DNA of 64,000 nt from a virus. Below are positions 1,199-63,026 of the stretch, piece after piece. A model generated the notes under the pieces. The model had not been told where the DNA came from, did no database searches, and saw only the letters and a list, made by a program, of their open reading frames with translations. A program made the position numbers and the translations under genes. Positions within the stretch are counted from its first letter, which is position 1; every line of letters begins with the position of its first letter. The DNA lies in the IMG/VR virus record IMGVR_UViG_3300032217_000462, positions 3,417-67,416 of that record. The stretch is one strand, 5' to 3'.

Positions 1199-2044
1199 AT
1201 GTCAAAAACATTTTCAAAAATTACCGAAACAAACAATACTCTGCTTGTTGTTGACTCACTTAATCTTGCATTTCGCTATAAACATAGCGGTGCTACAGAT
1301 TTTGCTGAAGACTACTTACGCACAGTTCAAAGTCTTAAAAAATCATATAAAGCATCTCATGTGATTATTGCTGGCGATCAAGGCTCATCAAGCTATCGCA
1401 AAGCTATTTATCCTGAGTACAAACAAAATCGTAAAGATAAATTCGAGAATCAAACAGACGCTGAAAAAGCAGCGTTTGAATTGTTTTTTGAGGACTTTAC
1501 AAAAACACTAGAACATATTGCTGACAATACCGATTTTCCAGTTTTACGCTTTCAAGGTGTTGAGGCTGACGATATTGCAGCATATATTGTATCAAAAAAA
1601 TCAAAACTTCCCATTGACGATATTTGGCTGGTTAGCTCAGATAAAGATTGGGATTTATTAGTTCAACCTAACGTATCAAGGTTCAGTTATGTTACTCGTA
1701 AAGAAGTTACAGTCGATAATTGGAATGACCACTATGACTTTAATCCAGAAAACTACATTAGTATTAAATGTCTTACAGGTGACAGTGGTGATAATGTTGC
1801 TGGGGTGCCTGGTATTGGACCTAAGCGAGCCGTGGGATTGGTTAATGAATATGGCAGTACTTACGATATTATTGCGAGCATCCCTATTAGTGGTAGATAT
1901 AAATACATCCAAGCACTAAATGAATGTAAAGATCAACTAGAATTGAACTATAAATTAATGGATTTAGTTACCTTTTGCGAAGATGCAATTGGTACTGAAA
2001 ATTGTAAACAAATTGACGAAACCTTAGAGTTATATTTAAAATGA
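1199..2044 (+). CDS. 5'-3' exonuclease / flap endonuclease (T5 D15-like)
   Basis: Motifs VVDSLN, YKQNR, EADD, SSDKD and GDSGDNVAGVPGIGPKRA (helix-3-turn-helix). Confidence 0.95.
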   Translation: MSKTFSKITETNNTLLVVDSLNLAFRYKHSGATDFAEDYLRTVQSLKKSYKASHVIIAGDQGSSSYRKAIYPEYKQNRKDKFENQTDAEKAAFELFFEDFTKTLEHIADNTDFPVLRFQGVEADDIAAYIVSKKSKLPIDDIWLVSSDKDWDLLVQPNVSRFSYVTRKEVTVDNWNDHYDFNPENYISIKCLTGDSGDNVAGVPGIGPKRAVGLVNEYGSTYDIIASIPISGRYKYIQALNECKDQLELNYKLMDLVTFCEDAIGTENCKQIDETLELYLK

Positions 2045-2514
2045 ACGGAACAACTATTTCAACTATTGGATATAATCCAAGTACCATGACTTATAGTAAT
2101 GTATTAGAATGTCAGCTAAAGCCAGGAGCTCAACTTCCTGAGCGTGCTCATCCAACAGATGCTGGAGCAGATTTAATGAGCAACGAAGATTTGGAAATTT
2201 ATCCAAATGAGCAAAAACTTGTTGATACGGGTATAGCAATTAAAATTCCACAAGGCTTTGCAGGCTTTGTGTATAATAGAAGCTCTCAAGGAAAAAAAGG
2301 AATTACTATCCCTCACAGCGTAGGCGTGATTGATAGTGGTTATCGTGACACAATTAAAGTTTTGTTAAAAAATATCGGTGATGACCCTTATAAAATTACG
2401 GCTGGTGATAGAATTGCCCAGTTGGTTATTCAGAAGGTTGAACTAGTACAGTTTAAAGATATTTGGAACGACTCTACCCGAGGCACAGGAGGCTTCGGTT
2501 CAACAGGAACATAA
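2041..2514 (+). CDS. dut: Trimeric dUTPase
   Basis: All five dUTPase motifs: AGADL, RSSQG, GVIDSGYR, RIAQL and RGTGGFGSTG. Confidence 0.97.
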   Translation: MNGTTISTIGYNPSTMTYSNVLECQLKPGAQLPERAHPTDAGADLMSNEDLEIYPNEQKLVDTGIAIKIPQGFAGFVYNRSSQGKKGITIPHSVGVIDSGYRDTIKVLLKNIGDDPYKITAGDRIAQLVIQKVELVQFKDIWNDSTRGTGGFGSTGT

Positions 2515-2521
2515 GGAAATC

Positions 2522-4486
2522 ATGCAGGTAAGCACAAGAGCACAAGTAATTACACGTCGTACATATAATCGCCCCACATCAGACGACGGAAAACAATTTG
2601 AAACGTGGCAAGAAACAGTTGCACGAGTTATCGATCACCAAGAATGGTTGTGGCAACGTGCCGCAAAACGTGAATTAACAGATGTAGAATATTCAGAACT
2701 TTACGATCTTGAACAACTGATGCTGGATCGCAAAGTAGCTATGAGTGGTCGTACATTGTGGCTTGGTGGTACAGATGTAGCTAAAACTCGGGAAGCTAGT
2801 CAATTTAACTGCAGTTTTACTCATGTAGAAACTGTATACGATGTAGTAGATTGTTTATGGCTTTTGCTGCAAGGATGCGGAGTAGGATTTAAACCAATTG
2901 TTGGTACATTGAATGGGTTTTCAAAACCTATTAAAAATATCCGTGTAGTTCGTAGTACTCGTACAGCTAAAGGCGGATTGGAGCATAATGTTGAAACATT
3001 TGATCAAGAAACTAAAACATGGACTATTCAGGTTGGTGACTCGGCTGAAGCTTGGGCAAAATCCATCGGTAAGCTTATTGCTGGTAAGTACGCTGCTGAT
3101 ACTCTCGTACTCGACTTTAGTCAGCTCCGCCCTGCTGGGGAGAGGTTAAAAGGATATGGATGGATTTCAAGTGGAGATAGCGCTATATCAACTGCATATG
3201 TGGCTATTGCAAACATCCTCAATGGGCGTGCTGATAGCTTGCTTACTAGGATGGATATTCTTGACATTGTTAATCATCTCGGTACAATTCTTAGTAGCCG
3301 TCGGAGTGCAGAAATTGCACTATTTGATTACGGACAACCAGAGTGGGAAGAATTTGCTGTAGCAAAGAAAGATTGGTGGTTGTATAATAACTCACACCGC
3401 CAACAATCGAATAATAGTTTAGTATTTAAAGAGAAGCCATTAAAAGCTGATTTGCAAAAGATTTTTGATCTGATGTTAGAAGCAGGCGGCTCAGAACCTG
3501 GATTTATCAATGAAGTTGAAGCTTTACGACGTGCCCCTTGGTTTAAGGGTGCAAATCCCTGTGTGGAAATCCTACTCGGAAATAAATCTTTCTGTAATCT
3601 CACAGAAACCGACATTGCCAAATTCAAAGGCGATACCGCGGGACTTCACAATGCCATACGGCTGGCAGCTCGTGCAAACTATCGTCAAACCTGTGTAAAC
3701 TTACAAGACGGTATTTTACAAGAGTCGTGGCACTTAAATAACTACTTTATGCGTTTATGCGGAGTTGGTTTAACAGGTATTGCTAAGCGGCCTGATATGA
3801 ATGGTTACGACTATGAGTATTTAAAGCGTACTGCTACTGGTGCTGCTATTGGTATGGCTCAAGAACTAGACCTGCCGTCGCCCAAAAATATTACTTGTGT
3901 TAAACCTTCAGGAACACTATCCAAGATTATGGATACCACAGAAGGAATTCACAAGCCACTAGGAAAGTATATTTTCAATAATGTACAATTTAGTAAATTT
4001 GACCCTGTTGTTGAAGTATTGCGCAATGCTAATTATAACGTTGTTAACCACCCCACTGATGATAGCGGTGTACTTATTACATTTCCTGTTGAGTGGATTG
4101 ATGTGCCTTTCATTAAAGTTGACGGCAAAGAAGTCAACTTGGACACAGCCGTCGAACAACTTGAAAAATACAAGTTAATTCAAACTTCGTGGACTCAGCA
4201 AAATACTAGTGTAACAATTAGTTATGATCCTACAGAAGTTCCTGCAATCATTGATTGGTTGCTGGACAATTGGGATTGTTATGTTGGTGTTAGTTTCATC
4301 TACAGAACAGACCCTACTAAAACAGCAAAAGATTTGGGATATTTATACTTACCACAAGAAGTAGTAGATGAGCAAACTTTCCGCAATTATGTACAACAAT
4401 TAACGCCAGTAAGCCTAGAAAATGCCAATAGTTTTGATGAAATTATGGGTGAAGATTGCGCTACTGGTGCTTGTCCAATAAGGTAA
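2522..4486 (+). CDS. nrdJ: Class II (adenosylcobalamin-dependent) ribonucleotide reductase, monomeric RTPR-like
   Basis: Motifs FNC, NPCVEI, FCNL, TCVKPSGT and a C-terminal CATGACPIR. No small-subunit gene lies next to it. Confidence 0.9.
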   Translation: MQVSTRAQVITRRTYNRPTSDDGKQFETWQETVARVIDHQEWLWQRAAKRELTDVEYSELYDLEQLMLDRKVAMSGRTLWLGGTDVAKTREASQFNCSFTHVETVYDVVDCLWLLLQGCGVGFKPIVGTLNGFSKPIKNIRVVRSTRTAKGGLEHNVETFDQETKTWTIQVGDSAEAWAKSIGKLIAGKYAADTLVLDFSQLRPAGERLKGYGWISSGDSAISTAYVAIANILNGRADSLLTRMDILDIVNHLGTILSSRRSAEIALFDYGQPEWEEFAVAKKDWWLYNNSHRQQSNNSLVFKEKPLKADLQKIFDLMLEAGGSEPGFINEVEALRRAPWFKGANPCVEILLGNKSFCNLTETDIAKFKGDTAGLHNAIRLAARANYRQTCVNLQDGILQESWHLNNYFMRLCGVGLTGIAKRPDMNGYDYEYLKRTATGAAIGMAQELDLPSPKNITCVKPSGTLSKIMDTTEGIHKPLGKYIFNNVQFSKFDPVVEVLRNANYNVVNHPTDDSGVLITFPVEWIDVPFIKVDGKEVNLDTAVEQLEKYKLIQTSWTQQNTSVTISYDPTEVPAIIDWLLDNWDCYVGVSFIYRTDPTKTAKDLGYLYLPQEVVDEQTFRNYVQQLTPVSLENANSFDEIMGEDCATGACPIR

Positions 4487-5066: not shown

Positions 5067-5753
5067 TTAATCTCTATAAGCTAAAATAATTTGTTTACAC
5101 ATTTTAGATCGGACAATATCATCATCCATAAATCGGACAACTTCAATGTCTGGGATACAGTCTAATCGCTGAATTGCGTCTGATAGTCCTGAGTCAGGAA
5201 TATCACTCTGATCTACATCGCCACTAATAATCATTTTACAGTTTTTACCAACGCGTGATAGCAGCATTTTCATTTCTTCTTTAGTAGCATTTTGTGCTTC
5301 ATCTAAAAGAACAATGCAATTATCAAATGTTGCACCTCGCATAAAACCTAGTGGTTTAGGCTCAATAGTTTTTGCTTTTAGTGCATATTCGTAAAAACCT
5401 TTTCCAAGGCTACGAATAAATACATTATCAAAAGGCTCTAAATAAGGAGCATATTTCTCCTCTAGTGTACCTGGTAAAAATCCTAGCCCACGTCCTGTTT
5501 CTACGTTAGGTCTAGTCAGAATTATCTTCTGAATACGTCTATGAAAGAGTTCTCCCGCAGCATATGTTGCTGCTACATACGTTTTACCTGTTCCAGCACT
5601 TCCTACCCCAAATACTATTTGATTAGATTGAATTGCTCTTAGGTATTCTGCTTGTATAAAGTTTAGGGGTTTTACATCAGTAAATCCATACTCTACTGGG
5701 TTACGTTCCAATTGAATTACATTGTCGCGTCTTGCTCTTTTACCACTTGCCAT
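5067..5753 (-). CDS. phoH: PhoH-like ATPase
   Basis: Motifs GSAGTGKT, LTRP, LGFLPG, FMRGATF, DEAQN and GDxxQSD. Confidence 0.95.
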   Translation of the reverse strand: MASGKRARRDNVIQLERNPVEYGFTDVKPLNFIQAEYLRAIQSNQIVFGVGSAGTGKTYVAATYAAGELFHRRIQKIILTRPNVETGRGLGFLPGTLEEKYAPYLEPFDNVFIRSLGKGFYEYALKAKTIEPKPLGFMRGATFDNCIVLLDEAQNATKEEMKMLLSRVGKNCKMIISGDVDQSDIPDSGLSDAIQRLDCIPDIEVVRFMDDDIVRSKMCKQIILAYRD

Positions 5754-9218: not shown

Positions 9219-9634
9219 TTCTTTGGTGCCTCCGCTGCACGGTTGTGTGTAGTAACAAATTCTTTGGGAATTACACAATTAGCGTCAAATTTAACAATTT
9301 CACGGTCTACGTATTTGATTATATCCTGACCCCGTTCTTTAACCACTTGAGTTTTTACAATGGTTTTTTCAACAATATCAGTATTGGTTCTAGCACTTTT
9401 TGCTTCTGCTTCTGCAACTTTTACTTCTAGATCTTTAACACGAGCTAACCATGCATCGTTGTTTGAAATAGCTCCTATCATATAAACTGAAATAAAAGCT
9501 ACTGCAATGCTTGCTGCTTGAATTAGTTGTGCATTTGGTAATATTTTAACAAATTTGGTAACTAAAAATGCTGCTATGCTTGCAAAAAGTGTTAAATAAA
9601 ATATCCAGTTAGGTAAAAATTGTAGTATCCACAT
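9215..9634 (-). CDS. i-spanin (Rz-like inner-membrane protein)
   Basis: N-terminal TM helices, a periplasmic coiled coil and a C-terminal Cys, directly upstream of the lipoprotein gene. Confidence 0.8.
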   Translation of the reverse strand: MWILQFLPNWIFYLTLFASIAAFLVTKFVKILPNAQLIQAASIAVAFISVYMIGAISNNDAWLARVKDLEVKVAEAEAKSARTNTDIVEKTIVKTQVVKERGQDIIKYVDREIVKFDANCVIPKEFVTTHNRAAEAPKK

Positions 9635-10680
9635 TATAACATACTCTTTAAGTTATTTAAAAATCGTGCATTAGTAGGCTCAAGTTTTATTGCTTCTTGT
9701 ACCAAGTCTATGGCTTCGCGTTTTAGTTGTAAATTCCAGGCAGCAATAGAGCACAAATCGTAAGGTAAAGCTCCCCACACATTAGGGTCCATTGTATAAA
9801 CAAGTTCTTTGTTTTTAATTGCTAATGCAGATTTACATGCTTGGTAACAATCTAACCACATACCCATTCTGTAAGTAATTTCAGCAAGACCTACCCAAGG
9901 CTCTCGGGTTTCAGGTGCTTCCGCAATAGCTAAACGAAACATTTTAATTGATTGTTCCCAGTTATTTAACTCACTATAGCATTTACCTAATAATCGGTAA
10001 GCATAAGAACGTTCATTTTTCCACGTAGCTTCAGGCATTGCTAAATATTTATTTAGGAAAATAATTGCTTCTTCCCAGCGACTATAAAAAGTCAGTTCAC
10101 GGGCATGATAAAATGCATTACGTGGACAGTGCGGATCTTCAGCAATAGCCAACTCTAAAAGTGGCATATATTGACCACGTGATTTAGTGTTGTCTGGATG
10201 ATGACTAACTAATAACATATTAGTTTGTGCATAAATTTCTTTGGTACGACCGTCTGGACGGGGATATTCGTGCACTGGATGATGCCAGTGATAACCTGTT
10301 CGGTGATGAATTTTTTCATAGAAAAAACTAATACCTTGTCCCCAATCAAATTTATAACGAAGTCTGGTAGTTTCTGCTGTCCAAACACGTTCAATTTCTT
10401 CTCGCCAACCTGGCTCTAATACTTCGTCTAAGTCTAGACTAATGCAAACATCATAATCTCCAGGAATTAGATTAAGTGCTGTATCACGAGCTTTGTCAAA
10501 CCGCCAAGGTTTTACACTAATATCATATACTGTTGCACCGTATTTTTTGGCTTCAGAAACTGTATTATCAGTTGAGCCAGTATCGGCAATTAAGATGAGA
10601 TCAGCATCTATTGCAGACTTACAAAAACGTTCGACGAATTGTTCTTCGTTCTTACTGATAGCGTATACTGCTATTTTCAT
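9634..10680 (-). CDS. GT2 glycosyltransferase with C-terminal TPR repeats
   Basis: Motifs KNEE, DTGSTD, FDKARD, DLDE and HE, followed by TPR-like helices. Confidence 0.9.
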   Translation of the reverse strand: MKIAVYAISKNEEQFVERFCKSAIDADLILIADTGSTDNTVSEAKKYGATVYDISVKPWRFDKARDTALNLIPGDYDVCISLDLDEVLEPGWREEIERVWTAETTRLRYKFDWGQGISFFYEKIHHRTGYHWHHPVHEYPRPDGRTKEIYAQTNMLLVSHHPDNTKSRGQYMPLLELAIAEDPHCPRNAFYHARELTFYSRWEEAIIFLNKYLAMPEATWKNERSYAYRLLGKCYSELNNWEQSIKMFRLAIAEAPETREPWVGLAEITYRMGMWLDCYQACKSALAIKNKELVYTMDPNVWGALPYDLCSIAAWNLQLKREAIDLVQEAIKLEPTNARFLNNLKSML

Positions 10681-55493: not shown

Positions 55494-57434
55494 TTAGGAT
55501 GCTGTGTACTTGTGTGCTGTAACAGCGTTACCTAAATTAGTAGTAACACGTGTCATACCGGTACGGAGGCTAGCCACCATAACGCGACGCTGTGTCTCAA
55601 CCAATTCTTGGGTATCAATGCGGAGACCGCGCTGGTTACCAACGATAAAGTTGCCTGGGTTCAAGCAAACTGCGCCAGCAATACCAGTACCTGGTGAGGC
55701 GAATTCTGCAGAAACCAATACTGGGCTACCACCGATTTGACCGATTTGACCGGTCAGCAATGTAGCTTGTGTACCAACTTGGTTCATTGTTTGGAACACT
55801 GTGTCTTCGAGCAACTGGTAATAAACATCGGTATTAACGATATAAACTACTTCTTGTGGATCGAGACCCCAGGCACCCAAACCTTGACGCAATGTGCGCA
55901 TTTTAGCAACTGTCATACCAGCAGCAACGGTGTTACCAGTAGCAGTGGTGTTAGTAGCCCAGTTTGCTAATCCTTTAACAGGATCAGAACCCGAACCTGC
56001 ACCTAACAAGAAAGCCTTGTCAACAGCGCGAGCAACACGACGAATCATACCATCACGGATGATTGGCATCAAAGCCAACAATGCGTCTTCTTCTTCTTCG
56101 TATGCTGTATACTCGTTTGTAGCAAGTTTATAAGCATTCAAAGTGATTTCTTTGAGCGCGTGTGTAGCAGAAGCACCAGCAGAAGCACCAGCAGCACCAA
56201 GCGAACCAGGAACAGCGCCAAACTCAGCGTTAGTAACCCAAGTTGCAGTACCTGCTTCTGGGTTCACTGGGATTGTCATCACGTTGGTTTGCATAGCAAT
56301 GTTGCGGAAAATAGGTGCAACAACCAAACGACGACGAACCTCAGACTCAAGATTCAAAGAAACTTCGAGTTCCCATGTAGCTGAAGGCACGTGAGCACCG
56401 TATTTTTGTACTAAATCGCGACCAGTTTTTGTGCCTTCCAATGACTTACCAGCCATTTTAGACAATAAAACTGCCTTTTCTTTGTCAGCATAAGACATAC
56501 CGTCTTTGGCTTCTTGGAAAGACATTTTAGATTTTGTGATTGCTTCGATTTCAGCAGCTTTTTCTTTCAAAGAAGCTTCTAAACCAGCGATAACTGATTT
56601 GCTTGACTCTTCAGCTTTTTCCAAACGCTTCTCAACTTCGGCCAACAAGCGCTCAGCACCTGTGTCACCAGTAGAGATAGAGGCAACAGCGGCTTTAACG
56701 CGTGCATCTAATTCGGCCTCAGCTTTGTCAGCAGCAGCTTTTTCAGCTAATGCTTTTGCCTGTGTATCGGCGATGGCTTTTGCAGTTTGCTCAGCCGCTT
56801 TGCTAGCTGCATCAGCTAACATTTGTTCTAATTGTTTTGGATCCATTTCCATTTCCTTTTTGACTTCGCTGCTTGCTTCCGTTGAGGATTCTAGCCCTTT
56901 AGCTGACTCGCTGTTGGGTGCAAACTGCATTTTGAAAGATTTAAATTCTTCGGCTGTATCAAACGCCTTAGAAAGACTAAATAGTGTATTTTGATTAGCT
57001 GGCACTGATACTACTGAAATTTCATGTAGTTCCAATTCCTTTACCACAAACAGCTCTGCAGCTGAGTTGTACTCCGCATCTACGATTCGAAATCCGATAC
57101 TAAACGCCGTTAAAACGCCGTCTTTTACAAGATTGAACACCTCACTGGCTGCTGAAGAAATTCTGGCTTTAATCCACAATCCTTTGCCGTCAATTTTATG
57201 TTCTACCATCCTACCAACTGGCTCGCTATGGTCATGGTATGCTAAAATTACTGGATTTTTCAAGTAATTCTGAATACCTTTTTCCCATACGCTTGCAGGA
57301 ACAACATCGCCCTGTCTATCAATATCCGTAGTACTTGCATACCCTTCAATTGTTATACTGGCTGTTTTTCCGTCGGAGGTAGTATTCTTGATAAATGAAC
57401 TGTTTAAAAACAGTACTTTACTTTTGTCTACCAT
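55494..57434 (-). CDS. Prohead protease-major capsid protein fusion (HK97 fold)
   Basis: Residues 1 to ~170 are an HK97-type protease (IEGYAS, DRQGDVV, LAYHDH, FSIGF, LHEISVVSVPAN). A coiled-coil scaffold/delta region and the capsid domain follow with no intervening stop. Confidence 0.92.
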   Translation of the reverse strand: MVDKSKVLFLNSSFIKNTTSDGKTASITIEGYASTTDIDRQGDVVPASVWEKGIQNYLKNPVILAYHDHSEPVGRMVEHKIDGKGLWIKARISSAASEVFNLVKDGVLTAFSIGFRIVDAEYNSAAELFVVKELELHEISVVSVPANQNTLFSLSKAFDTAEEFKSFKMQFAPNSESAKGLESSTEASSEVKKEMEMDPKQLEQMLADAASKAAEQTAKAIADTQAKALAEKAAADKAEAELDARVKAAVASISTGDTGAERLLAEVEKRLEKAEESSKSVIAGLEASLKEKAAEIEAITKSKMSFQEAKDGMSYADKEKAVLLSKMAGKSLEGTKTGRDLVQKYGAHVPSATWELEVSLNLESEVRRRLVVAPIFRNIAMQTNVMTIPVNPEAGTATWVTNAEFGAVPGSLGAAGASAGASATHALKEITLNAYKLATNEYTAYEEEEDALLALMPIIRDGMIRRVARAVDKAFLLGAGSGSDPVKGLANWATNTTATGNTVAAGMTVAKMRTLRQGLGAWGLDPQEVVYIVNTDVYYQLLEDTVFQTMNQVGTQATLLTGQIGQIGGSPVLVSAEFASPGTGIAGAVCLNPGNFIVGNQRGLRIDTQELVETQRRVMVASLRTGMTRVTTNLGNAVTAHKYTAS

Positions 57435-58628: not shown

Positions 58629-59057
58629 TTAAGTGAACTCTGAGAAAAAACTACCAAAGCTCTTTTTGGGAATAACTGTTTCGCCAGAATGTTTAGCCCG
58701 CTGGCTTTCAATCCAGTGAGCTTGTTTGGGTTCGCTACCAGGCCTAGGAGCTTTACCATAAACACTATGCAGCGCTACATGATGCCGATTACAAAGGGTG
58801 TAAACTTGGTCATATAACTCCACACGATGCTCGTCGATAAACTCGTCTCGCACAGCAACAATGCCTTCATCCGTTGAAATATCATAACCTTTAGCTTCAG
58901 CCCATTTATCTAAGAGTATAGTAACTGAATGTAGGTGATGGAGTTCTAAATCCACAGTAGTACTGCAGATATGACACTCCGATTTCTTTTCATAGGCTGC
59001 TTTAGCCCTATCACGAACCCACTTTACAGGAATTCGCTTGTTTGTGTTTTTTGCCAT
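58629..59057 (-). CDS. HNH-like zinc-finger endonuclease in the T5 portal-terminase position
   Basis: CHIC...LELHH...TLCNRHH..LH motif. Likely start is ATG 59057, overlapping the Dps stop codon. Confidence 0.8.
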   Translation of the reverse strand: MAKNTNKRIPVKWVRDRAKAAYEKKSECHICSTTVDLELHHLHSVTILLDKWAEAKGYDISTDEGIVAVRDEFIDEHRVELYDQVYTLCNRHHVALHSVYGKAPRPGSEPKQAHWIESQRAKHSGETVIPKKSFGSFFSEFT

Positions 59058-59497
59058 TATTTTAGCGTTGAACGTAACATCCATGAATGCTTGCGATGAG
59101 CGTTTTGACGATCAGCCAAGAAATTTGCTAAGCCGTAATCACCCAAATCTTCAGCTGCAACGTACGCAGCGCGAAACATCTCACACATTAGATCTGAATC
59201 TGCTAAAAGTTCTTGGGTCATTTGCATGCCGTTGGGTACTTCTAGTTGACACTCAACTTGTGAAATATCATCAAGTGTTTCAAAAGCAGCAGGTGCGTAA
59301 ATACGCAGTGCACGTAGCTCTTCAGCAAATGTATCAATCGAACCATATACTTCAGCATAAATGTTACCAAACAGTTCATGATACTGTGGGAACAAACTGC
59401 CTTCAACATTCCAGTGAAAATTGGCGGCTTTCAAAAAGAAGCTAAACTCACTGGCAAACGCCGATTTAAGCATTGCTTCATATTCTGTTTTATCCAT
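59057..59497 (-). CDS. dps: Dps / mini-ferritin (DNA starvation protection protein)
   Basis: HWNVEG..F.QYHELF...Y......D.FAE ferroxidase signature and a K..WML C-terminus; GGAG RBS before ATG 59497. Confidence 0.93.
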   Translation of the reverse strand: MDKTEYEAMLKSAFASEFSFFLKAANFHWNVEGSLFPQYHELFGNIYAEVYGSIDTFAEELRALRIYAPAAFETLDDISQVECQLEVPNGMQMTQELLADSDLMCEMFRAAYVAAEDLGDYGLANFLADRQNAHRKHSWMLRSTLK

Positions 59498-59539
59498 TTT
59501 TATCTCCAAGTGGGACAAAATGCACCACAATTACCTAGT

Positions 59540-59568
59540 ATTATAGCAGAACAGCAACAAAAAGTCAA
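59540..59568 (-). promoter_or_regulatory. Sigma70 promoter heading the dps-HNH-portal-capsid operon
   Basis: Minus strand reads TTGACT, 17-bp spacer, TATAAT, with an extended -10 TG. Confidence 0.85.
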
Positions 59569-59588: not shown

Positions 59589-60875
59589 TTAAACAGTATA
59601 GGTGTACAGCGCATACCGGACGGCATCAGCCATGTGACTATATTGGTCATGCAATGGGCGTTCACGTTGGAGCCCCTCACGTTGATCCCAGCGATACTGG
59701 TCAAACATAGATCGTACATTCGTACAATGCGGGGCAACCTTTAGTCGACCTTGTTGTAACAAAGTCTGCACATACGCAATGCCGGGTAAGACATCTTTTT
59801 TGGCTTTGGTGGTTGAAATGTTGTATAAGTAGGCAAGGTCACTAGCAAACTGTGCAGCCGCACTATCAATAAAAGTTACTTCAACACCATGCTTTTGATT
59901 CATTTCAGTAAATGCAGCTGCATGCTGCTCAGTGGTTTGCTCGGACTTTAAGTATTCGTCGACAATAAAAAAGCAATCGCGGTTCCAATCGTATACGATA
60001 GCACAATAAGCAGTAGCATCTCGGTAGCCAGGGTCGCACCCAGCAAACGCCTCACCTTTGAGGTCTTCAGGAATTTCACAAATATCATCTTCTTTTAATG
60101 CATAAATCTGACCCTCAAACACAGTAAATGAGGCCAGGTATTCTTGTTCAAATTCGGCTTTTGACATAGAACGTCGCGCTTCGGCAACATCCGATTCAGC
60201 CATTCGAGTATTTTCGGTGTAATCAGCTTGTAAGCTAATCCACTCGGGGAAATTGTCATCAAATCCACGATTATAAAATTGACTAAACCAGTTGTTACGA
60301 CCACGTGGGGTTGAAATAAAAATGGCTTTGGCTTGTGGCTTGTCCAGTGTAGGTCGTAGGGCAACATTAAAGGCAGCTTCGCCGCCTTCACCTAGTGCAG
60401 CTTCGTCAAATATGATTAAGTCATACGATCGACCAACAGTACTATCAACGGTACCAAGAGAACCCATACGAATGGTAGAACCGTTGCTGAGTTCGATAAT
60501 TTTGTCTTGGAGATTGTCGCGAGCCACTTCGAGGTCGAAGTGTTTGATGAGTTTGCGTTGGAGTTCAAATGATATGGAACTAAGGTTATAGTTAGGGGAA
60601 ATGATTAAAACATTGCTGCCAGGAACAAGTGTTACTAATTGACCAATAATATTGGCTATGTAAGTTTTGCCTAGACGTCGTGCTAGTGCAGCACAGATAA
60701 ATCTGTATTTAGGATCGTTGACTGCGTTTATGAGTGCAACCTGTGGGCGATTGATTGTATCCCAGACATTGAGTAGCTTGAGATAATTTGTGATAGGTAG
60801 CTTAATAAATCGCTGTTGAGGGTCGAACTCTTGTACAGCATCTACGTTAACTTCGGGTCGTGAGACTACAAGCAT
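59589..60875 (-). CDS. terL: Terminase large subunit
   Basis: Walker A ARRLGKT, Walker B IIFDEAA, ISTPRG, and nuclease motifs GCDPG and HMADAVRY. Confidence 0.96.
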   Translation of the reverse strand: MLVVSRPEVNVDAVQEFDPQQRFIKLPITNYLKLLNVWDTINRPQVALINAVNDPKYRFICAALARRLGKTYIANIIGQLVTLVPGSNVLIISPNYNLSSISFELQRKLIKHFDLEVARDNLQDKIIELSNGSTIRMGSLGTVDSTVGRSYDLIIFDEAALGEGGEAAFNVALRPTLDKPQAKAIFISTPRGRNNWFSQFYNRGFDDNFPEWISLQADYTENTRMAESDVAEARRSMSKAEFEQEYLASFTVFEGQIYALKEDDICEIPEDLKGEAFAGCDPGYRDATAYCAIVYDWNRDCFFIVDEYLKSEQTTEQHAAAFTEMNQKHGVEVTFIDSAAAQFASDLAYLYNISTTKAKKDVLPGIAYVQTLLQQGRLKVAPHCTNVRSMFDQYRWDQREGLQRERPLHDQYSHMADAVRYALYTYTV

Positions 60876-60876
60876 T

Positions 60877-61590
60877 TTAATTCCAATATTTGCTGGAATC
60901 TAGTTTGTCCCAGTGAGTTTTATTGTTTCTGTTCCAGAAATTTTTGATTAAGTATTTGGTCATACCAAAATAACCCATCTTCTTAAATCGGCGTGAATCC
61001 TGTCCAAAGTAGTGATTTAATAATCTAAACTTTTTGGTACTGTACTTGCGAGATAAAAAGTAATCTTCGCTGGTTGCATACTGTTCTGGAAATCCGCCAT
61101 ACTCTTCAAACCTGTCACGGCGCGTTAACATAAATGCACCGACTGCAAATGGACTAAAGTATTTTAGTATGTTGTTTACTGCGTTAAAGATTGTGAAACC
61201 AATTTGTGCTCGTACATCACCGTCATAGCACCGGGCATTTAATCCAACAAGATCTAGGTCTTTGGCTTCTAATACGTCGACTGCATCCTGAATAACTGTG
61301 TTTGAAAAGAATCGTACATCACTATCAATAAATAGTATATAAGGAGTTTTTACTAGTCGCGCACCACGGTTTTTTGCTACTGAAACGGGCCCACCCTCAA
61401 TTACTTTGACGTTTAATCCACGACTATTATCACGGATAACTTGTCTGGTTGAATCCGTACTGCAATCGGCAATAATAATCTTAGTAGCACCAATTTGTTG
61501 ATCTCGTAACGCTTGTAACAAATGTTGAATATAGTTTTCTTCGTTTTTACAAGGTACTACAATGGTAATTTTACTGCTGAGTGAGCTCAT
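60877..61590 (-). CDS. GT2 family glycosyltransferase
   Basis: Motifs IVVPCKNEE, IIADCSTD, AKNRGA, LFIDSD (DXD), GGF and SED. Confidence 0.92.
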   Translation of the reverse strand: MSSLSSKITIVVPCKNEENYIQHLLQALRDQQIGATKIIIADCSTDSTRQVIRDNSRGLNVKVIEGGPVSVAKNRGARLVKTPYILFIDSDVRFFSNTVIQDAVDVLEAKDLDLVGLNARCYDGDVRAQIGFTIFNAVNNILKYFSPFAVGAFMLTRRDRFEEYGGFPEQYATSEDYFLSRKYSTKKFRLLNHYFGQDSRRFKKMGYFGMTKYLIKNFWNRNNKTHWDKLDSSKYWN

Positions 61591-62332
61591 TGTTTTTTGT
61601 CCATGTTATTATCTCCCAACGACCATCTAAGTGTTCTACAAGTGCTGTGCATGACTCAACCCAGTCACCATCGTTCATGTATGTTACACCATCCACAATT
61701 TTAATTTCTGCATGATGTATATGTCCACATATCACACCATCAAAACCACGTTTTTTGCAGTAGGCTACTAAATTTTGCTCAAATTTAAACACAAAGTCAA
61801 CAGCCGATTTAACGCGAGATTTTAAATACTGGGATAAGCTCCAGTATCCAAAACCCATTTTATGCCGCAGCCAATTAAACCTGGTGTTTAAGCCAAGTAC
61901 AAAATCATAGGCTTTGTCGCCTAGGAAGCTTAGCCAAGGCGCTAGGCTAGTAATTCCATCAAATAAATCGCCGTGTGTTACTAGGTAACGGTGACCATCA
62001 ACGCCTGTGTGAGTAGCTTGATTGGCAATTTCAATATTTCCAAATCCAATGTCATAAGGCATTAGTGGGCGTAAAAATTCATCGTGATTGCCTGCTATGT
62101 ATATGACTCTGGTACCACGTTTGGCATACGTTAGTACACGACGCACTACATTAGTATGCGACTGCTGCCAACGCCAGCGGTTTTGCTGAATCTTCCATAT
62201 ATCTAATATATCGCCTACTAAGTATAGAGTTTCGCAAGTATTTGATTTTAAGAAGTCGCACAACTTTTCAGCTTGTGAATCACGCGTGCCCAAGTGTACA
62301 TCTGAGATAAAGATTGCGCGATAATGTGCCAT
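61571..62332 (-). CDS. plcP: PlcP-like phospholipase C / LpxH2-type metallophosphoesterase
   Basis: Motifs FISDVHLG, LYLVGDILD, GNHDE, HGDLFD, YWSLSQYLK, ICGHIH and NDGDWVESCTALVE. GNHD is typical of PlcP/LpxH2, whereas E. coli LpxH has GNRD. Confidence 0.82.
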   Translation of the reverse strand: MAHYRAIFISDVHLGTRDSQAEKLCDFLKSNTCETLYLVGDILDIWKIQQNRWRWQQSHTNVVRRVLTYAKRGTRVIYIAGNHDEFLRPLMPYDIGFGNIEIANQATHTGVDGHRYLVTHGDLFDGITSLAPWLSFLGDKAYDFVLGLNTRFNWLRHKMGFGYWSLSQYLKSRVKSAVDFVFKFEQNLVAYCKKRGFDGVICGHIHHAEIKIVDGVTYMNDGDWVESCTALVEHLDGRWEIITWTKNNELTQQ

Positions 62333-62805
62333 TACACACCTTCGCCTGTAATCAAACGTTGCACTAGCTGCGAATACTTTGATCCGTCTAGACCTTCGTT
62401 GATTTGTACGTTTACCTGCTTTTGCGGTGCAGTGGTCATGCGTGCTTTTTCTAGTGCGATTTCACGGTCTAGTAAATCCATTGACATTTTGTGTGACATT
62501 TGGAGTAGCTCCGCAATATCTTTGGTAGACCCAGTTTGTGATTCTTCAAGTTCACTAAACTTTTGTTTGATTAACGCATCCATGGCACGTCGCATCAAGA
62601 ATCTATTGTTGTAGCCACTATCAAAGAAAACTGAGTCAATATAAGTTTTGACCTCACGGCGCGCTAGCAGGTTGGTTACCACTTCAGGGTCTAGATCTAG
62701 TTCTTGGGCTACTGCACGGGCGTCATTAAGCTGGAGGTAAGCATTTGCTACTTCCAGTGCTTCCGGAGAGATACGTACGGTTTCGGCAGGTAGGTGAGTT
62801 GTCAT
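62332..62805 (-). CDS. terS: Terminase small subunit (T5-like)
   Basis: ISPEALEVANAYL...VF.D.GYNNR...K..ELEES..GS.KDI..LL pattern; AAAGGA RBS before ATG 62805. Confidence 0.85.
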   Translation of the reverse strand: MTTHLPAETVRISPEALEVANAYLQLNDARAVAQELDLDPEVVTNLLARREVKTYIDSVFFDSGYNNRFLMRRAMDALIKQKFSELEESQTGSTKDIAELLQMSHKMSMDLLDREIALEKARMTTAPQKQVNVQINEGLDGSKYSQLVQRLITGEGV

Positions 62806-62825
62806 GGTATTATCCTTTAGGGTCA

Positions 62826-62854
62826 ATTATAACAGTTTAGGGCAATTTAAGCAA
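62826..62854 (-). promoter_or_regulatory. Sigma70 promoter for terS-plcP-GT2-terL
   Basis: Minus strand reads TTGCTT, 17-bp spacer, TATAAT, with an extended -10 TG. TTGCTT is a known T5 -35 variant. Confidence 0.8.
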
Positions 62855-62998: not shown

Positions 62999-63026
62999 TT
63001 GACAAAAAATCTCAACTATCTATAAT
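62999..63026 (+). promoter_or_regulatory. Sigma70 promoter
   Basis: TTGACA, 16-bp spacer, TATAAT, preceded by an AT-rich UP-like tract. Confidence 0.8.

Follow-up and report, generated by a model that had tools for sequence, protein, structure and literature searches.

Membrane phospholipid is among the larger phosphorus stores of a bacterial cell, phages need phosphorus for their DNA, and phosphate-starved bacteria exchange phospholipids for glycolipids. Here we describe a pair of viral genes that may carry such an exchange into infected cells: a gene for a PlcP-like metallophosphoesterase (MPE) and a gene for a family 2 glycosyltransferase (GT2), lodged together between the genes for the small (terS) and large (terL) terminase subunits in IMG/VR virus record IMGVR_UViG_3300032217_000462. 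The window analyzed is a 64,000-nucleotide stretch, bases 3417–67416 of this 67,416-base record, from a phage of lake or estuary origin.

The closest described systems are bacterial. Lipid renovation by PlcP–Agt operons, in which a phospholipase C is paired with a diacylglycerol glycosyltransferase, is already well described, with examples in Sinorhizobium meliloti, Phaeobacter MED193, SAR11 HTCC7211, and P. aeruginosa (PA3219/PA3218), as given in the accessible text of two studies (PMC4796936, PMC8528852). Two further enzymes show that a partner of the GT2 clan, regarded as unusual in a preliminary description of this DNA, has bacterial precedents. Specifically, the accessible parts of the relevant papers describe Pgt (GT21) of Mesorhizobium and Agrobacterium as a processive enzyme of the GT-A clan that glycosylates diacylglycerol (PMC8231724) and whose gene stands next to plcP in “types 3 and 5” neighborhoods, where it can be directly downstream (PMC4796936), and MG517 of Mycoplasma genitalium as a processive GT2 diacylglycerol beta-glycosyltransferase that lacks transmembrane segments and is anchored at the membrane surface through an amphipathic helix at its C terminus (PMC6506492). 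A virus-encoded PlcP was not found described in the literature searched, including the accessible portions of PMC7892664 and PMC9804370, with subscription journals outside the coverage.

A Two-Gene Cassette Between the Terminase Genes

The four genes run head to tail on the minus strand in the order terS, MPE, GT2, terL, and a promoter-like site was read from the sequence upstream of terS:

62826–62854, minus strand: promoter-like TTGCTT-17 nt-TATAAT
62332–62826, minus strand: terS (phrog_3802, E 2.8e-34)
61571–62332, minus strand: PlcP-like MPE, 253 amino acids (Pfam Metallophos, 47.8 bits)
60877–61590, minus strand: GT2, 237 amino acids (PF00535, 69 bits)
59589–60875, minus strand: terL, 428 amino acids (Terminase_6N/6C; phrog_2, E 2.2e-42)

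The tight packing that the preliminary description reported is borne out at every coordinate: TAATG at 62330–62334 is common to the terS stop and the MPE start, the MPE and GT2 genes overlap by 20 nt (61571–61590), and a single base (60876) lies between GT2 and terL. The terS open reading frame (ORF) as listed opens with TTG at 62826 (164 amino acids), though the ATG at 62805 is the likelier start, with a product of 157 amino acids, the length seen in relatives. The terL product is ~50% identical to that of Vibrio phages of roughly 113–118 kb. Because 13 of 80 related viral contigs show the order terS-MPE-GT2-...-terL, this arrangement is no artifact of assembly. The best-matching DNA data set, which may be the source sample, spans the three junctions between the genes with no difference.

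Coupling of the Two Genes Across Viruses

Relatives of the MPE are encoded on 421 stretches in IMG/VR and relatives of the GT2 on 497, and the viral locus counts given here refer to the best 80 of each (76–94% identical in the case of the MPE). Directly downstream of the viral MPE stands either a GT2 homologue (37/80; 65–80% identical) or an Agt-like GT4 of 330–340 amino acids with Glycos_transf_1 and Glyco_transf_4 domains (42/80), never both (0/80), with one locus leaving no room for a partner. Reciprocally, the MPE lies immediately ahead of the GT2 in 73 of its 80 viral loci, whereas six have no room and one lacks it, such that the pairing holds in 73 of the 74 loci where it could be seen. 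Co-occurrence, the absence of which the preliminary description would have taken as a refutation, is thus tight in related and unrelated viral contigs alike, and a GT2 partner can no longer be called unusual for a phage when it follows the MPE at this frequency. Across the two scans the pair was found at 110 loci—at least four contigs are counted twice, so this is not a number of distinct contigs—and in at least 30 upstream and 34 downstream gene-family contexts, surrounded by mixed auxiliary genes. The MPE and GT2 genes are a mobile cassette, and the near-constant tie of this GT2 to the MPE is one of the points that we add to what is known.

A second addition concerns the partner. Mapped on the MPE tree described below, the partner type (GT2 or GT4) switches 12–13 times, with at least 4–5 of these changes forced by well-supported branches. 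GT2 and GT4 have thus substituted for one another on repeated occasions behind closely related MPE genes. By these gene neighborhoods, GT2 and GT4 appear to be interchangeable partners on one viral PlcP clade.

Other genes join the cassette in places. In four viral loci (L090:4077-4967, L091, L093, and L095), the MPE is separated from the Agt-like GT4 by a RimK-type ATP-grasp gene. A class II aldolase/adducin gene (PF00596), whose role there is unexplained, recurs beside the MPE cassette on several phage backbones, with examples just upstream of the MPE at L088:5430-6086, L213, L227, L231, L232, L235, and L238.

The terS–terL Gap Is a Hypervariable Cargo Slot

We found terS relatives on 345 IMG/VR stretches and surveyed the terS–terL gap in the best 80 (90–100% identical), in all of which terL was reached downstream of terS. 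The contents of the gap (window 60876–62331; loci L256–L333) were as follows:

Empty: 21/80
MPE and GT2, with or without a 197-amino-acid ORF and a class II aldolase: 13/80
Class II aldolase alone: 14/80
The 197-amino-acid ORF (no known family) alone: 8/80
Aldolase and the 197-amino-acid ORF, without the cassette: 2/80
IscA-like gene: 3/80
300–700 bases of unassigned content: 19/80

Neither the MPE nor the GT2 stands by itself in the gap of these 80 relatives. A freshwater metagenome contig (depth 4.9) joins 60872 to 62330 and so skips the cassette exactly, with 72 letters on the shorter side of the join at a likeness threshold of 85; an estuary run, whose contigs give good coverage of terL and terS and next to none of the cassette, was not used as evidence. 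Within the slot, MPE alleles are either ~94% or ~75% identical to that of the window beside a terS that is >90% identical throughout, and the coexistence of two allele classes with a conserved neighbor suggests that the cassette has been exchanged repeatedly.

The gap between terS and terL is thus a hypervariable cargo slot in this phage lineage, and the pair, present or absent at a fixed site here and found in many unrelated contexts elsewhere, has the distribution of an auxiliary (“moron”) cassette. It is one of several alternative cargos in the lineage, and is carried without a Pho box. The preliminary description drew attention to the position between the terminase genes; as the gap is empty or otherwise filled in most of the relatives and serves as a cargo slot, this position marks no special tie to packaging and says little about it.

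The MPE Is PlcP-Like and Placed Apart From LpxH

The MPE retains every motif that the preliminary description quoted: D11-x-H13, G40-D41, G81-N-H-D84, H120-G-D122, and G203-H-x-H206, together with YWSLS at 163–167 and GDWVESCTALVE at 222–233. Across 45 homologues from viruses and bacteria, most motif residues do not vary, and the same holds for the ligands of an intact binuclear metal site (D11, H13, D41, N82, H120, H204, and H206) and for ten residues of the lid. The AlphaFold model (predicted local distance difference test, pLDDT, 79.8, lower in the lid) has a calcineurin-type core with a helical lid inserted at 132–195, and its best 25 matches among solved structures are all LpxH, at a template modeling (TM) score of ~0.57; such a lid is expected in PlcP too, and not only in LpxH. 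A sequence search of the PDB likewise gave a weak LpxH match (E 6.6e-4) over the first 90 residues. Measured against the LpxH equivalog models, however, the MPE passes neither of the two cut-offs (models TIGR01854 and NF003743; the scores are 35.9 bits where 190.35 are required and 47.2 where 134 are required) and scores 31.6 bits in the genome search. Its identity is 17–18% with the LpxH of E. coli and likewise with another true LpxH (219.7 bits), and it has GNHDE at the position of LpxH GNRDF, with all metal ligands kept.

Relatives of the MPE are abundant. A large protein search returned at least 8000 matches, the best 120 of them 75–91% identical, and we take the relatives at 76–91% identity, on contigs up to 355 kb, as probably viral because of the IMG/VR scan and because bacterial genomes reach only 59–60%. 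When each bacterial species is represented by a single genome, the top 80 loci show 50–60% identity and belong mostly to Hyphomonadaceae and other Alphaproteobacteria, and 124 genomes in an even sample of 401 from Pseudomonadota have a homologue (37–59% identity). Deposited phage genomes contribute five matching records among 50,697, the best being Pelagibacter phage Mosig (51%). In Mosig (MT647606.1, 93031–94866) the homologue is annotated “UDP-2,3-diacylglucosamine hydrolase,” lies back to back with a gene annotated as a putative phosphate ABC transporter, and has no glycosyltransferase after it.

Directly downstream of the MPE homologue, 36 of the 80 bacterial loci have a GT4. When scored for the two motifs of the Agt/GTcp clade taken from the accessible text of PMC8231724 (GRVAxEKN and FPSxTDTFG), 28 of these 36 GT4 genes have both and six more have one, and by this measure they are Agt-type. 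Viral and bacterial MPE orthologues alike therefore adjoin agt-like diacylglycerol glycosyltransferase genes, as PlcP does, and the MPE is 50–60% identical to the bacterial genes in plcP–agt operons. A phylogeny was built that included LpxH, one of the enzymes that the preliminary description had proposed for such a tree. In this maximum-likelihood tree (quick search, LG+G4, SH-aLRT support, 142 distinct sequences), the two LpxH sequences split off on a branch of 4.28 (support 100), and 59 viral sequences group together (support 99). Their sister group (support 92) consists of 34 alphaproteobacterial genes, all with a GT4 behind them, and the next clade out holds 43 Hyphomonadaceae-type sequences that stand alone in their genomes. 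One gammaproteobacterial metagenome-assembled genome encodes a true LpxH (219.7 bits) plus an MPE homologue beside a GT4, and three alphaproteobacterial genomes have the homologue (38–46 bits on the LpxH model) without a true LpxH.

These comparisons uphold the earlier view that the phosphoesterase is PlcP-like and not a canonical LpxH. Judged from sequence, the MPE is probably an LpxH-like lipid-handling phosphoesterase of a family other than LpxH, and is predicted to be a phospholipase C acting on membrane phospholipids.

The GT2 Enzyme Is a Largely Viral Family

The PF00535 score of the GT2 (threshold 23.3), its DXD motif and its acidic catalytic pair identify the family; PF13506/GT21 is also matched (35.6 bits, threshold 21.7), and no NCBIfam model claims the protein, the nearest being TIGR04283. 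The enzyme looks active on present sequence and model evidence: D89-x-D91 and E175-D176 are invariant in 64 relatives, in which the stretch RRFKKMGY is also conserved, and the model (pLDDT 95) is a plain GT-A fold. Membership of Agt was considered and rejected, the window enzyme being GT2/GT-A and not GT4/GT-B even as it occupies the place of Agt. No hydrophobic segment was found in the protein. Its last 42 residues (10 K/R, 3 D/E, and 9 aromatic) are cationic and aromatic in composition only, with no clear amphipathic helix in a hydrophobic-moment scan of the tail.

This GT2 is found almost only in viruses. A scan of 1.84 billion representatives gave 60 relatives at E ≤1e-30, mostly of 225–250 amino acids; the nearest Atlas clusters are 100% viral, and distant bacterial relatives (28–36% identity) occur in six of the 401 Pseudomonadota genomes. 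Among such bacterial relatives, those at ~30–34% identity in L250–L254 lie directly beside a 420–440-amino-acid protein with VTT/DedA and LssY_C domains, an uncharacterized pair that may act on a membrane lipid.

Promoter and Phosphate Signals

A single promoter serving all four genes, as envisaged in the preliminary description, is plausible because the genes overlap, and co-transcription of terS, MPE, GT2, and terL is plausible on the same grounds. The TTGCTT-17-TATAAT site itself is present; it is not on the consensus-scanner list, its −35 hexamer matches at three of six positions, and promoter-like sites in the terS region are at chance level (19, against 19.3 in shuffles). A look-up of RNA data sets containing the stretch returned none. 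The intergenic region upstream of terS is divergent, with a 12-of-12 promoter-like site on the plus strand at 62999–63026.

In relatives, the connection of the cassette to phosphate that was first suggested for this locus is apparent both in neighboring genes and upstream of the MPE. PstS (PBP_like_2) is encoded near the MPE in 10 of 80 viral loci and near the GT2 in 8 of 80. Of 94 distinct regions upstream of the viral MPE, 17 contain Pho-box-like repeats (≥11/14 consensus positions) where shuffles predict ~1.8, GT2-type cassettes being among them; the element is a direct repeat with an 11-base period, e.g., CTGTAATCATACTGTAAT. We also note a recurring Pho-box-like direct repeat of the form (C/T)TGTAATCA(T/A)ACTGTAAT, again with an 11-base period, upstream of the MPE at viral loci such as L125, L126, L244, L245, and L249; it is some nine times commoner upstream of viral MPE genes than in shuffles.

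Proposed Mechanism and Alternative Explanations

The gene order, family placement, coupling, and mobility of the pair are observations. From these we infer the two activities, the product, the timing, and the benefit that make up the following model. The phage, which has a T5-like terminase, would carry a two-gene auxiliary (“moron”) cassette in its variable terS–terL slot. The MPE, as a member of the PlcP family, would cut the phospho-head group from host glycerophospholipids and leave diacylglycerol in the membrane, and the small soluble GT2—predicted from its place behind the MPE to glycosylate the diacylglycerol released—would transfer onto it a sugar from a nucleotide sugar. Because GT2 enzymes invert, the product would probably be a beta-glycosyl-diacylglycerol, as opposed to the alpha-linked lipid of Agt. 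A phosphorus-free glycolipid would in this way replace phospholipid, with the released phosphate esters available to the infected cell. As no Pho box was found here and the pair is joined to the terminase genes, both enzymes would be produced late, in each infection and irrespective of the phosphate state of the host. A modest balance of probability, in our judgment, favors this swap of phospholipid for glycolipid by way of diacylglycerol, with the phosphate-bearing head groups feeding nucleotide synthesis.

Several observations weigh against this interpretation. Phosphorus mining for DNA synthesis would be better served by early than by late expression; the Pho-box scan, which returned no match in the whole window and a best match of 10/14—background level—in the 260 nt upstream of terS, gave no sign here of the PhoB control that marks PlcP. 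The PlcP identity of the MPE is a prediction from synteny and tree position. The acceptor assigned to the GT2 is a matter of guilt by position: its closest folds are generic GT-A enzymes (AvpGT, PcManGT, TarS, and TarP), its bacterial relatives adjoin VTT/DedA-LssY_C membrane proteins and not plcP, and no homologue of this GT2 is found near the MPE at any of the 80 bacterial loci. The one among the 80 viral GT2 loci that lacks the MPE, which reads terS-GT2-IscA-terL in a related phage, means that the GT2 can persist on its own. Finally, the record is ~64% complete (CheckV).

The same chemistry could instead benefit the phage by remodeling the envelope late in infection, through a block to superinfection, a change of receptor, or a tuning of lysis or membrane stability. 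This would suit a pair that lacks a Pho box and sits on a late packaging operon, in a slot that also carries unrelated cargo as moron sites often do, and it is in keeping with statements in the accessible text of two papers that lipid renovation is likely to affect the membrane proteins and lipopolysaccharide used as phage receptors (PMC9804370) and that aminolipids affect phage attachment in Ruegeria (PMC9938194). The cassettes that other phages keep by pstS and Pho-box-like repeats point to phosphate economy, however, and we regard envelope remodeling as the principal benefit as rather unlikely. We consider it improbable that the two enzymes work together on something other than diacylglycerol, for instance with a polyprenyl phosphate, a released head group, or a protein as the GT2 acceptor and another lipid pyrophosphate or phosphodiester as the MPE substrate. 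Generic fold matches of the GT2 do include polyprenyl-phosphate-type and teichoic-acid enzymes, its distant bacterial relatives adjoin DedA/VTT-domain proteins, the nearest NCBIfam model (TIGR04283, 67 bits) is below its cut-off of 182, and the GT2 was seen that one time without the MPE. Yet GT2 and an Agt-like GT4 interchange behind one MPE clade and never occur together, the most economical explanation of which is a shared function, and a GT2 enzyme that glycosylates diacylglycerol is already known from the accessible description of MG517 (PMC6506492).

That the MPE is a true LpxH, i.e., a UDP-2,3-diacylglucosamine diphosphatase, and that the pair alters lipid A or lipopolysaccharide, strikes us as highly improbable. 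The notion draws on the Joint Genome Institute label of the homologues, which is LpxH, on the closest solved fold, and on virome surveys that list lpxH among lipopolysaccharide genes (accessible text of PMC10653327 and PMC9611531). It is opposed by scores far under both LpxH cut-offs, by low identity and a different motif, by the long and fully supported branch between the two, by the genome that has a true LpxH in addition to the MPE homologue, and by the Agt-type GT4 and PstS partners of MPE relatives.

A wider pattern can be put forward, namely that the GT2 represents a family of diacylglycerol beta-glycosyltransferases specific to viruses, and that this family has taken the place of Agt behind viral PlcP on repeated occasions. 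We offer this tentatively, and would sooner doubt than accept it. Were it true, hosts would be made to build a glycolipid that they may not make themselves, and this lineage would have them do so each time it infects, without regard to the phosphate-starvation switch of the host. With the Agt-type cassettes counted in, viral replacement of membrane lipid would be common and overlooked in lakes and estuaries, hidden under the name “lpxH.”

Other Features of the Window

Several further genes in the window are recorded here:

1199–2044, plus strand: 5′-3′ exonuclease
2041–2514, plus strand: dUTPase
2522–4486, plus strand: B12-type (class II) ribonucleotide reductase
5067–5753, minus strand: PhoH
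9634–10680, minus strand: second, unrelated GT2 fused to TPR repeats, at the end of the tail-fiber gene block
55494–57434, minus strand: prohead protease (Peptidase_S78) and major capsid domain in one 646-amino-acid ORF
59057–59568: Dps/ferritin-like gene between terL and the portal gene (Pfam Ferritin, 63 bits)

Downstream of terL the order is Dps-like ferritin, a 151-amino-acid protein, the portal gene, and the protease–capsid fusion. The Dps-like gene, which is kept after terL in many relatives, is preceded by an 11-of-12 promoter-like site with a TG extension (59568–59540). No tRNA genes were found in the viral sequence, and PADLOC returned no match for terS, MPE, or GT2.

Significance and Comparison With Known Systems

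A virus that brings a lipid-swap pathway would have a new way to reprogram both the resources and the membrane make-up of its host, and neither gene is rare, with 421 MPE and 497 GT2 stretches in the viral collection. Virome surveys that count the MPE as a lipopolysaccharide gene probably err in their functional tallies at this point. The GT2 in the place of Agt is a compact candidate glycolipid synthase, and the empty, filled, and differently filled variants of the slot are natural controls for the benefit of the cassette.

Among known enzymes, LpxH shares with the MPE a calcineurin-type metal site and a fold with an inserted helical lid, and is its best structural match, but the two differ in sequence (17–18% identity), in motif (GNRDF versus GNHDE), in the curated cut-offs that the MPE fails, and in clade. 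The phage GT2 is like MG517 in family, in its GT-A fold, in the lack of a transmembrane segment, and in a C-terminal region suited to a membrane surface; at 237 amino acids against 341, this is a likeness of kind, set by description. The comparison with Pgt is likewise one of description: the phage enzyme passes the GT21 threshold and scores higher on PF00535.

Cyanophage pstS is Pho-regulated. Like phage pstS and phoH, the cassette would belong to the host-derived auxiliary genes of phages from nutrient-poor waters—phoH is in the window and pstS lies beside the cassette in relatives—but unlike them it is predicted to act on membrane lipid and not on uptake. The bacterial PlcP–Agt operons remain the closest parallel. 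In both, a glycosyltransferase gene comes immediately after that for a metallophosphoesterase; the viral clade has alphaproteobacterial plcP–agt genes as its sister group, an Agt-like GT4 is present in half of the viral cassettes, and phosphate links are seen in relatives. The phage locus differs from them in that its partner is a GT2 (GT-A, inverting) and not a GT4 (GT-B, retaining), in that its genes are viral, with the closest bacterial MPE found at 59–60% identity, and in that the pair has no Pho box here and is embedded in a terminase operon.

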